In this document: piece after piece, positions 31,793-34,541 of the stretch
Numbering within the stretch: position 1 is the first letter of the stretch
Layout of the letters: every line of letters starts with the position of its first letter
Position numbers and translations under genes: made by a program
Assembly (NCBI RefSeq): GCF_057098645.1
Contig: NZ_CM169472.1
Strand: one strand, 5' to 3'
Length of the DNA stretch: 64,000 nt
The notes under the pieces: generated by a model
Told to the model about the DNA's origin: nothing
The model's database searches: none
The model's input: only the letters and a program-made list of their open reading frames with translations

Positions 31793-32962
31793 TTAGCTGT
31801 TAGCAACGCAAACTGTTTCAGGTTGTTTTCTGGCTGACATAAACACCAGCAATAATGCCAGTCCCGCGACAATCGCCCCCATCACCGGCACAAAGCTGTA
31901 TCCCAGCCCAGCGGAAATTACCGCGCCACCAGCAGCTGCTCCCAGCGCATTTCCAAGATTAAAGGCACCAATATTGACTGATGAAGACAGACCTGGCGCT
32001 TCACTGGCGACACGCATCACGCGCATCTGTAACGGCGGTACGACCGCAAAGGTTGCTGCGCCCCACACCACCATGCTAATAGCTGCGCCGAACTCATTGC
32101 GGGCCAGGAACGGGATTGCCAGCATAATCACCATCAGCAGCAACAAAAAGCCTTTCAACGTGCCGTTAACTGAACGATCTGCCAGTTTGCCGCCGAGATA
32201 GTTACCGATAGAGAATCCGACACCAATCAGCACCAGCATTGCCGTGACGAACACTGGTGTTGCGTGGGTAATACTTTGCAGTACCGGAGAGATATAGGTG
32301 TAGAGAGTAAACATTGCACCAGCTCCCAGTACCGTCGTCAGCAATGCAGACAGCACCTGTGGACGCATTAATACCGCCAGCTCTTTTTTCACTTCAGGTC
32401 GTGCCCCTGCACCACCTTTAGGTAATGAGAAGAACAGACTTACCATTGAAATCACGCCCAGCCCCGCCGTTGCCAGAAATGACATCCGCCAGCCGATGGT
32501 TTCACCCAACCAGGTCGCCGCCGGCACGCCACCGATATTTGCCAGGGTTAACCCCATAAACATAGTGGCAACTGCGCTGGCCTGTTTATGTTTTGGCACC
32601 ACGCTTGCGGCCACGACTGAACCCAAACCAAAAAATGCTCCGTGATTCAGGCTGGTCAAAATGCGTGAAAGCATCAGGGTCATATAATCCGGCGCGATGG
32701 CGGAAAGTACGTTGCCTAGCGTGAAAATTGCCATCAGGAAAATCAACGCACTGCGGCGGGCACGATGAGAAAGTAGAAGCGTCATCAGCGGCGCGCCAAC
32801 CATTACGCCAACTGCATAGGCACTGATTAACATTCCGGCAGCGGGAATCGAGACATCCACACCGCGCGCAATGACGGGCAACAAGCCCATTGGCGAGAAC
32901 TCCGTTGTCCCGATACCAAACGCGCCAATCGCCAGCGCCAGCAACGGATAGTTAATTTTCAT
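31793..32962 (-). CDS. ydhP: MFS transporter YdhP
   Basis: 389-aa 12-TM MFS-like protein in conserved position. Confidence 0.88.
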   Translation of the reverse strand: MKINYPLLALAIGAFGIGTTEFSPMGLLPVIARGVDVSIPAAGMLISAYAVGVMVGAPLMTLLLSHRARRSALIFLMAIFTLGNVLSAIAPDYMTLMLSRILTSLNHGAFFGLGSVVAASVVPKHKQASAVATMFMGLTLANIGGVPAATWLGETIGWRMSFLATAGLGVISMVSLFFSLPKGGAGARPEVKKELAVLMRPQVLSALLTTVLGAGAMFTLYTYISPVLQSITHATPVFVTAMLVLIGVGFSIGNYLGGKLADRSVNGTLKGFLLLLMVIMLAIPFLARNEFGAAISMVVWGAATFAVVPPLQMRVMRVASEAPGLSSSVNIGAFNLGNALGAAAGGAVISAGLGYSFVPVMGAIVAGLALLLVFMSARKQPETVCVANS

Positions 32963-33127
32963 GCCTTATCTCCACCTCTTCGCGTCATTACGCGATATTC
33001 ATTAAAGTGGCGAAAGCATGACAGCAATCACAAAAAAATGAAAATAACAAAAAGAGAAAACACTTTTGCCATTTTGCTAACAAACAGGAAGGAGATGCGA
33101 GGGAGAACGCGCTCCCTCGAGAGGAAA

Positions 33128-33217
33128 TCAGTGCAGCGCGGCAGTCAAACCCACGGCTACGATCAAACCGAGGACGATAATCGTTGTTACCAGTGAAAAT
33201 TTAAGGTCGGTGCTCAT
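33128..33217 (-). CDS. ynhF: Small membrane protein YnhF (29 aa)
   Basis: Hand translation of the minus strand gives MSTDLKFSLVTTIIVLGLIVAVGLTAALH*; below the ORF-track cutoff. Confidence 0.75.
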   Translation of the reverse strand: MSTDLKFSLVTTIIVLGLIVAVGLTAALH

Positions 33218-33515
33218 CAAGTTTTCTCCTTTTTTATTACCACACAAAAAGTGATATTACGCATTTTTACACACTGTGATGAAAAAATCTCCCGTCATTT
33301 ATAATGATAAGTGTTTTTACCACTTCCCCTTTTCGTCAAGATCGGCCAAAATTCCACGCTTACACTATTTGCGTACTGGCCATTGACCCCTTCCTGACGC
33401 TCCGTGTCGTTTTTCCGGCGTACCGCAACACTTTTGTTGTGCGTAAGGTGTGTAAAGGCAAACGTTTACCTTGCGATTTTGCAGGAGCTGAAGTTAGGGT
33501 CTGGAGTGAAATGGA

Positions 33516-34541
33516 ATGGCAACAATAAAAGATGTAGCGAAACGAGCAAACGTTTCCACTACAACTGTGTCACACGTGATCAACAAAACACGTTTCGTCG
33601 CTGAAGAAACGCGCAACGCCGTGTGGGCAGCGATTAAAGAATTACACTACTCCCCTAGCGCGGTGGCGCGTAGCCTGAAGGTTAACCACACCAAGTCTAT
33701 CGGTTTGCTGGCGACCAGCAGCGAAGCGGCTTATTTTGCCGAGATCATTGAAGCAGTTGAAAAAAATTGCTTCCAGAAAGGTTACACCCTGATTCTGGGC
33801 AATGCGTGGAACAATCTTGAGAAACAGCGGGCTTATCTGTCGATGATGGCGCAAAAACGCGTCGATGGTCTGCTGGTGATGTGTTCTGAGTACCCAGAGC
33901 CGTTGCTGGCGATGCTGGAAGAGTATCGCCATATCCCAATGGTGGTGATGGACTGGGGTGAAGCAAAAGCTGACTTCACCGATGCGGTCATTGATAACGC
34001 GTTCGAAGGCGGCTACATGGCCGGGCGTTATCTGATTGAACGCGGTCACCGCGAAATCGGCGTTATACCCGGCCCGCTGGAACGTAACACTGGCGCAGGC
34101 CGCCTTGCCGGTTTTATGAAGGCGATGGAAGAAGCAATGATCAAGGTGCCGGAAAGCTGGATTGTGCAGGGTGACTTTGAACCTGAATCCGGTTATCGCG
34201 CCATGCAGCAAATCCTGTCGCAGCCGCATCGCCCTACTGCCGTCTTCTGTGGTGGCGATATCATGGCAATGGGCGCACTTTGTGCTGCTGATGAAATGGG
34301 GCTGCGCGTCCCGCAGGATGTTTCGCTGATCGGTTATGATAACGTGCGCAACGCCCGCTATTTTACGCCGGCGCTGACCACGATCCATCAGCCAAAAGAT
34401 TCGCTGGGTGAAACAGCGTTCAACATGCTGTTGGATCGTATCGTCAACAAACGTGAAGAACCGCAGTCCATTGAAGTGCATCCGCGCTTGATTGAACGCC
34501 GCTCCGTGGCTGACGGCCCGTTCCGCGACTATCGTCGTTAA
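33516..34541 (+). CDS. purR: Purine repressor PurR (LacI family)
   Basis: 341 aa, recognised PurR ([23 protein letters not shown]...). Confidence 0.95.

Follow-up and report, generated by a model that had tools for sequence, protein, structure and literature searches.

Purification of the bd oxidase of E. coli revealed an unexpected fourth subunit of ~3 kDa that forms a single helix (Thesseling et al., 2019; PMC6853902). The subunit was identified as YnhF by nano-LC-ESI-MS/MS, its gene was placed between ydhP and purR, and the name CydY was proposed for it (Thesseling et al., 2019; PMC6853902). Discovery of the gene dates from 2008 (Hemm et al.). Production of CydH at low oxygen and retention of its formyl-methionine are relayed second-hand in PMC6853902. 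In top-down mass spectrometry the 29-aa protein was detected intact and N-formylated, with 100% of its sequence covered (PMC12529367), and intact CydH also was seen by top-down proteomics in a separate study (PMC9264385). The peptide is reported to adopt two orientations in the membrane, as cited in PMC13232886.

CydH lies in a cleft between transmembrane helices TM1 and TM9 of CydA (PMC8951039). It occupies and blocks the site through which oxygen enters the Geobacillus enzyme, and a narrower alternative channel runs from CydB to heme d (PMC6853902). In Proteobacteria, homologues of CydH occur together with bd oxidases of the long-Q-loop type (PMC8951039). The bd-II oxidase is without a CydH-type subunit (PMC8585947), and both bd-II and the mycobacterial bd oxidases function without one (PMC8951039, PMC8585947). 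No knock-out or kinetic data on a cydH deletion were found in the literature searched, and the importance of channel blocking therefore stands as a proposal of the structural authors.

The DNA analyzed here is a stretch of 64,000 nucleotides from contig NZ_CM169472.1 of RefSeq assembly GCF_057098645.1, hereafter termed the window. The minus strand at positions 33128-33217 carries an ATG...TGA frame of 29 codons plus TGA whose coding strand begins ATG AGC ACC and ends CAC TGA. Reverse-complement translation yields MSTDLKFSLVTTIIVLGLIVAVGLTAALH, which is exactly the peptide given for this frame in the original prediction, where it was described from the letters alone as YnhF, a hydrophobic protein of 29 aa located between ydhP and purR. 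That description is borne out by RefSeq, by an identical protein chain of known structure, by family model NF033411 and by a GRAVY value of 1.63. All 29 residues match chain H of PDB entry 6RKO (6rko_H), which the PDB names 'Uncharacterized protein YnhF / Cytochrome bd-I ubiquinol oxidase CydH', and the same 29-aa sequence is present in eight PDB entries. The depositors of 6RKO reportedly are Safarian et al., who in 2019 used the name CydH. The peptide scored 50.2 bits against the NCBIfam equivalog NF033411.1 (small_mem_YnhF), for which the cut-off is 30, with residues 1-29 aligned on model positions 1-29. In all of the RefSeq E. coli entries listed, the ORF is named cydH and its product 'cytochrome bd-I accessory subunit CydH' (WP_000102278.1). 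Thus, the name YnhF in the original prediction denotes the right gene but is outdated, the current designation being cydH (also cydY). The prediction also lacked the function known since 2019, namely that of a fourth subunit in the cytochrome bd-I complex.

The genes in the window are ordered sodB-ydhP-cydH-purR-punR (punR being ydhB), and these flanks of sodB, ydhP, purR and punR identify the window as E. coli chromosome. The ydhP gene (31793-32962, minus strand) starts at 32962 and purR (33516-34541, plus strand) starts at 33516, leaving a gap of 553 bp between the two starts in which the cydH ORF is contained. The location of cydH as an orphan gene outside the cyd operon and adjoining purR agrees with the published description (PMC6853902). 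A 701-bp query around the ORF found a match in 5425 of the 5426 complete genomes of E. coli, usually with at least 99% identity, and the cydH ORF region itself was found in 5424 of the 5426, two being without a match. A second copy of the region was observed at one place, on a plasmid of one E. coli genome. Separately, in E. coli PCN061 (NZ_CP006636.1, 1697597-1699074) an IS1A insertion divides the 701-bp region in two.

The sequence, length, genomic position and orientation of the window ORF all are identical to those of CydH/CydY/YnhF (NF033411; UniProt A5A618; 6RKO chain H), and every defining feature that could be tested was found. The ORF therefore is cydH itself, formerly ynhF and with the alias cydY, and not merely a CydH-like gene. 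Overall, the best explanation of the locus is that it specifies CydH, the 29-residue, single-helix fourth subunit of cytochrome bd-I (CydABX-CydH), a reading to which a probability of about 98% is assigned. Both the gene and its function already are known, and there is nothing novel at the ORF.

The frame is set apart by its ribosome-binding site and by its hydrophobicity. A Shine-Dalgarno sequence, AGGAG (33226..33230, minus strand), is positioned 8 nt 5' of the ATG and forms a duplex with the anti-Shine-Dalgarno sequence at the 3' end of 16S rRNA of -8.7 kcal/mol; a GGAG-type purine run is found close to the 5' side of the ATG in most of 116 related loci. Short frames as such are abundant, with 76 ORFs of 20 aa or more within 4.5 kb and 174 ATG-initiated ORFs of 25-40 aa in the six frames of the window, and the presence of an ORF by itself therefore is not significant. 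Among these 174 frames the CydH peptide is the most hydrophobic. Its best 19-residue Kyte-Doolittle mean is 2.53, at residues 10-28, which fits a protein of ~29 aa with one transmembrane helix.

Conservation of the frame was assessed in two ways. A HMMER search in which the peptide was written twice as the query retrieved 21 cluster representatives at E <=0.001, all at least 60% identical, although the CydH family may reach further than this search and the genome scan described below because a 29-aa hydrophobic query is statistically weak and the DNA pattern of the scan required the conserved core. The core common to the HMMER representatives is DLKFSL.TT.IVL.LIVA.GLTA.LH, and several of the 21 are evident miscalls or have frameshifted ends. 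Six entries of 40-76 aa (P0001, P0003, P0004, P0016, P0017 and P0021) have either normal N-termini followed by unrelated C-terminal tails or N-terminal extensions; these odd lengths probably stem from frameshifts, sequencing errors or wrong automated starts.

In the second approach, the GTDB set, in which each species is represented by a single genome, was scanned for a degenerate DNA pattern covering codons 4-20, and 116 loci were obtained. The hosts span about 20 enterobacterial genera plus Edwardsiella and include Escherichia, Salmonella, Citrobacter, Enterobacter, Klebsiella, Raoultella, Kosakonia, Cedecea, Buttiauxella, Lelliottia, Leclercia, Pluralibacter, Phytobacter, Atlantibacter and Superficieibacter, among others. 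As the pattern imposed codons 4-20, independent information is limited to the ORF boundaries (start and stop) and length, to codons 1-3 and 21-29, and to third codon positions. Each of the 114 complete ORFs, that is, those not cut by the end of a locus, has an ATG three codons before the pattern and is exactly 29 codons long; the stop codon is TGA in 97 copies, TAA in 16 and TAG in one. Across 108 distinct DNA sequences the unconstrained codons 21-29 showed mean column entropies of 0.48 bits at first codon positions, 0.47 at second and 1.45 at third, so that third positions are ~3-fold as variable as first and second positions. Pooled comparisons with E. coli gave pS values of 0.64-0.75 and pN values of 0.10-0.15, with pN/pS ratios of 0.14 over the full ORF and 0.23 over codons 21-29. 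The cydH gene is under purifying selection as a protein, and the signature is clear.

The two observations on which the original prediction had staked its refutation, a missing translation signal and a frame not conserved in related genomes, thus are contradicted by the data. Translation is documented by top-down mass spectrometry (PMC12529367), by the purified bd-I oxidase (PMC6853902) and by 6rko_H, and the ATG-started frame of 29 codons is kept in 114 of 114 complete copies. The translation and tagging checks that it had recommended had in effect already been done by others, through mass spectrometry and structure determination.

The arrangement of cydH with its divergent neighbor is similarly stable. 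The purR gene is divergent from cydH in every related locus with sufficient flanking sequence, and the gap between the two is 288-300 nt in Enterobacteriaceae and about 355 nt in Edwardsiella. Downstream of cydH, most genera have ydhP; this gene is absent from Cedecea, Buttiauxella, Edwardsiella and Salmonella arizonae, where sodB comes directly after cydH. The near-fixed distance between purR and cydH persists although the downstream neighbor changes.

The spacer in which cydH resides had been described as a gene-free gap of 550 bp. The size was accurate (553 bp), but the gap is not empty: apart from cydH, it includes a strongly conserved control region shared by the divergent purR and cydH genes. 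Conservation of the ~300 nt on the 5' side of the ORF greatly exceeds that of the near-saturated wobble sites within it. A palindromic PUR box, GGTAAACGTTTGCC, is situated in the purR leader at 33457-33470, about 45-60 nt 5' of the purR ATG, and almost all of the 107 sequences compared, which represent about 20 genera, retain it. This box presumably is one operator for purR autoregulation. Autoregulation of purR is attributed to Rolfes and Zalkin (1990) in the PMC3688515 supplement.

On the cydH strand, TGTGTAAAAAT (33263..33273, minus strand) resembles an extended -10 element (TGn + AAAAAT). Its T.TG..A.AAT core is invariant in 40 diverse upstream regions, and the 107 sequences show high conservation of the block. 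Conservation thus points to TGTGTAAAAAT as a candidate cydH promoter, from which the leader would be about 40 nt. A simple promoter scan recorded no promoter on the cydH strand; TGTGTAAAAAT was missed because it has no -35 element. The hexamer TAATAT (33254-33259) was considered as a cydH promoter and dropped in favor of TGTGTAAAAAT, as it is poorly conserved. Other invariant upstream blocks are AGATTTT (33284-33290), AAAGGGGAAG (33323-33332) and GGAATTTTG (33347-33355). The ynhF mRNA is reported to undergo 5' trimming that is RNase G-dependent.

Folding prediction placed a GC-rich hairpin with an 8-bp stem, CGAGGGAG-N6-CUCCCUCG, at 33098..33119 on the minus strand, 8 nt past the cydH stop codon. 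A 76-nt segment with the hairpin folds at -20.2 kcal/mol (z = -1.86), and the stem arms are moderately conserved. The hairpin is not called an intrinsic terminator because it is without a clean U-run, and it probably marks the 3' end of the cydH transcript or acts as a stabilizer. The start of ydhP is on the same strand, 166 nt beyond the cydH stop, and transcription might therefore continue into ydhP.

Binding of regulators has been recorded in the vicinity. An FNR peak at K-12 positions 1735542/1735575 presumably corresponds to about 33190-33223 in the window, a conversion based on the position of purR in U00096.2. An FNR-like sequence with two mismatches, TTGATGAGCACCGA (33207-33220), overlaps the cydH start codon. 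The FNR consensus scan at three mismatches was too permissive, returning 339 hits against about 255 expected. In the PMC3688515 supplements, the FNR ChIP-seq peak labelled ynhF/purR is among those without a change in expression in the fnr mutant. Neither ynhF nor purR is mentioned in the supplements of the ArcA ChIP paper. In Salmonella, a MarA/RamA peak has been labelled purR<>ynhF.

The conservation upstream of cydH bears on a different interpretation of the locus. Rfam family RF02081 ('STnc550', an 'enterobacterial sRNA' typed 'Gene; sRNA') matches 33125..33515 on the minus strand with a score of 396.5 bits (gathering score, 48), an interval that comprises the cydH ORF and the entire purR-cydH intergenic region up to the purR ATG. 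Taken with an upstream sequence that is more constrained than the wobble sites of the ORF, the match could signify that the locus mainly or additionally specifies an Hfq-type sRNA, the ORF being incidental or the transcript combining coding and regulatory functions. This interpretation is very unlikely. The 3' 90 nt of the RF02081 model are the cydH ORF, in which the consensus varies at third codon positions as expected of a coding sequence, and RNAalifold detected zero consensus pairs and no covariation in 40 diverse upstream regions of 300 nt. As the upstream 300 nt are conserved yet without consensus pairs, the constraint looks like that of DNA-level control elements, and the conserved blocks, including the invariant PUR box and the promoter-like motifs, resemble control sites of purR and cydH. 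A non-coding transcript with conserved structure accordingly was not found by either the wobble pattern of the ORF or RNAalifold with the 40 sequences, no mention of STnc550 was found in the literature searched, and the protein evidence rules out that the locus is solely non-coding. STnc550 thus covers the same DNA as cydH, but the model takes in the cydH coding sequence and its upstream part is without conserved structure; it looks like a mislabelled or legacy record of the mRNA and promoter region of cydH and not like an independent sRNA. It also is improbable, albeit marginally less so, that cydH has a second role, whether through an Hfq-associated STnc550 RNA that acts as both regulator and mRNA or through a fixed ~298-nt spacing and shared control region that couples the expression of purR and cydH, for instance via FNR and MarA/RamA, for which binding between purR and cydH has been reported.

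Two further alternatives concern the reading frame. The ORF list enters this frame as 33128-33247, with a TTG start at 33247 and a length of 39 aa, and the 29-codon ATG frame is nested within it; a few database gene calls (P0008, P0010 and P0014) likewise have N-terminal extensions. That the true product is this 39-aa protein nevertheless is extremely unlikely, as the AGGAG sequence falls within the extension and is placed to serve the ATG, the formyl-methionine form detected by top-down mass spectrometry with full coverage is of 29 aa (PMC12529367), and the PDB chain also has 29 residues. Moreover, the extension is not conserved, with Superficieibacter loci (L005, L075 and L096) possessing an in-frame TAA two codons before the ATG. 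The TTG start therefore is refuted in practice. The abundance of short frames noted above likewise might suggest a chance open frame without a product in a non-coding spacer, but the chance of this is negligible: a chain of identical sequence in a solved structure, detection by mass spectrometry, purifying selection and a length fixed across about 20 genera already refute it. Thus, assignment of the 29-codon ATG frame as cydH is retained.

With this assignment, the course of events for the product can be described. Translation from the ATG at 33217 gives the formylated 29-residue peptide, as demonstrated by mass spectrometry and in the PDB entries. The peptide inserts as one transmembrane helix with a hydrophobic core at residues 10-28, as seen in the structure and in keeping with the hydrophobicity determined here. 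In the solved enzyme, CydH binds CydA between TM1 and TM9, opposite CydX, and shields heme b595 from the membrane, and judging from the identity of the peptide it would be expected to associate with CydAB in the strain from which the window derives. In this position it closes the wide entry on the membrane side that the Geobacillus enzyme uses as its oxygen channel, and oxygen therefore is thought to reach heme d by the narrower CydB channel. Redirection of oxygen to the CydB channel may in turn influence selectivity or affinity, as the structural authors propose, and we infer that the blocking of the channel matters in this respect.

The locus carries little weight as a discovery, the gene having been known since 2008 and its role as a bd-I subunit since 2019. 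It is useful as a positive control, being a genuine gene of 29 codons that is recoverable from raw sequence alone and that is missed by size-filtered ORF tracks. The biological interest of CydH is that bd oxidases are targets for antibacterial drugs and that this subunit alters the path of ligands to the heme site.

Among the small subunits of bd oxidases, CydX, AppX and CydS, which are encoded in the cyd/app operons, likewise consist of one transmembrane helix with a length of about 30-40 residues, bind to CydA and are co-purified with the oxidase (PMC6853902, PMC8951039). CydH has no sequence relationship with these proteins: a Pfam-A scan of the CydH peptide with E values up to 1 returned no family and, specifically, no match to the CydX/YbgT-YccB family model. 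The contrast extends to gene location and to placement on CydA. CydX is encoded within the operon, contacts the opposite side of CydA (TM1, 5 and 6) and is required for assembly and stability, whereas CydH is the product of an orphan gene elsewhere on the chromosome, is located between TM1 and TM9, and is the proposed gate to heme b595.
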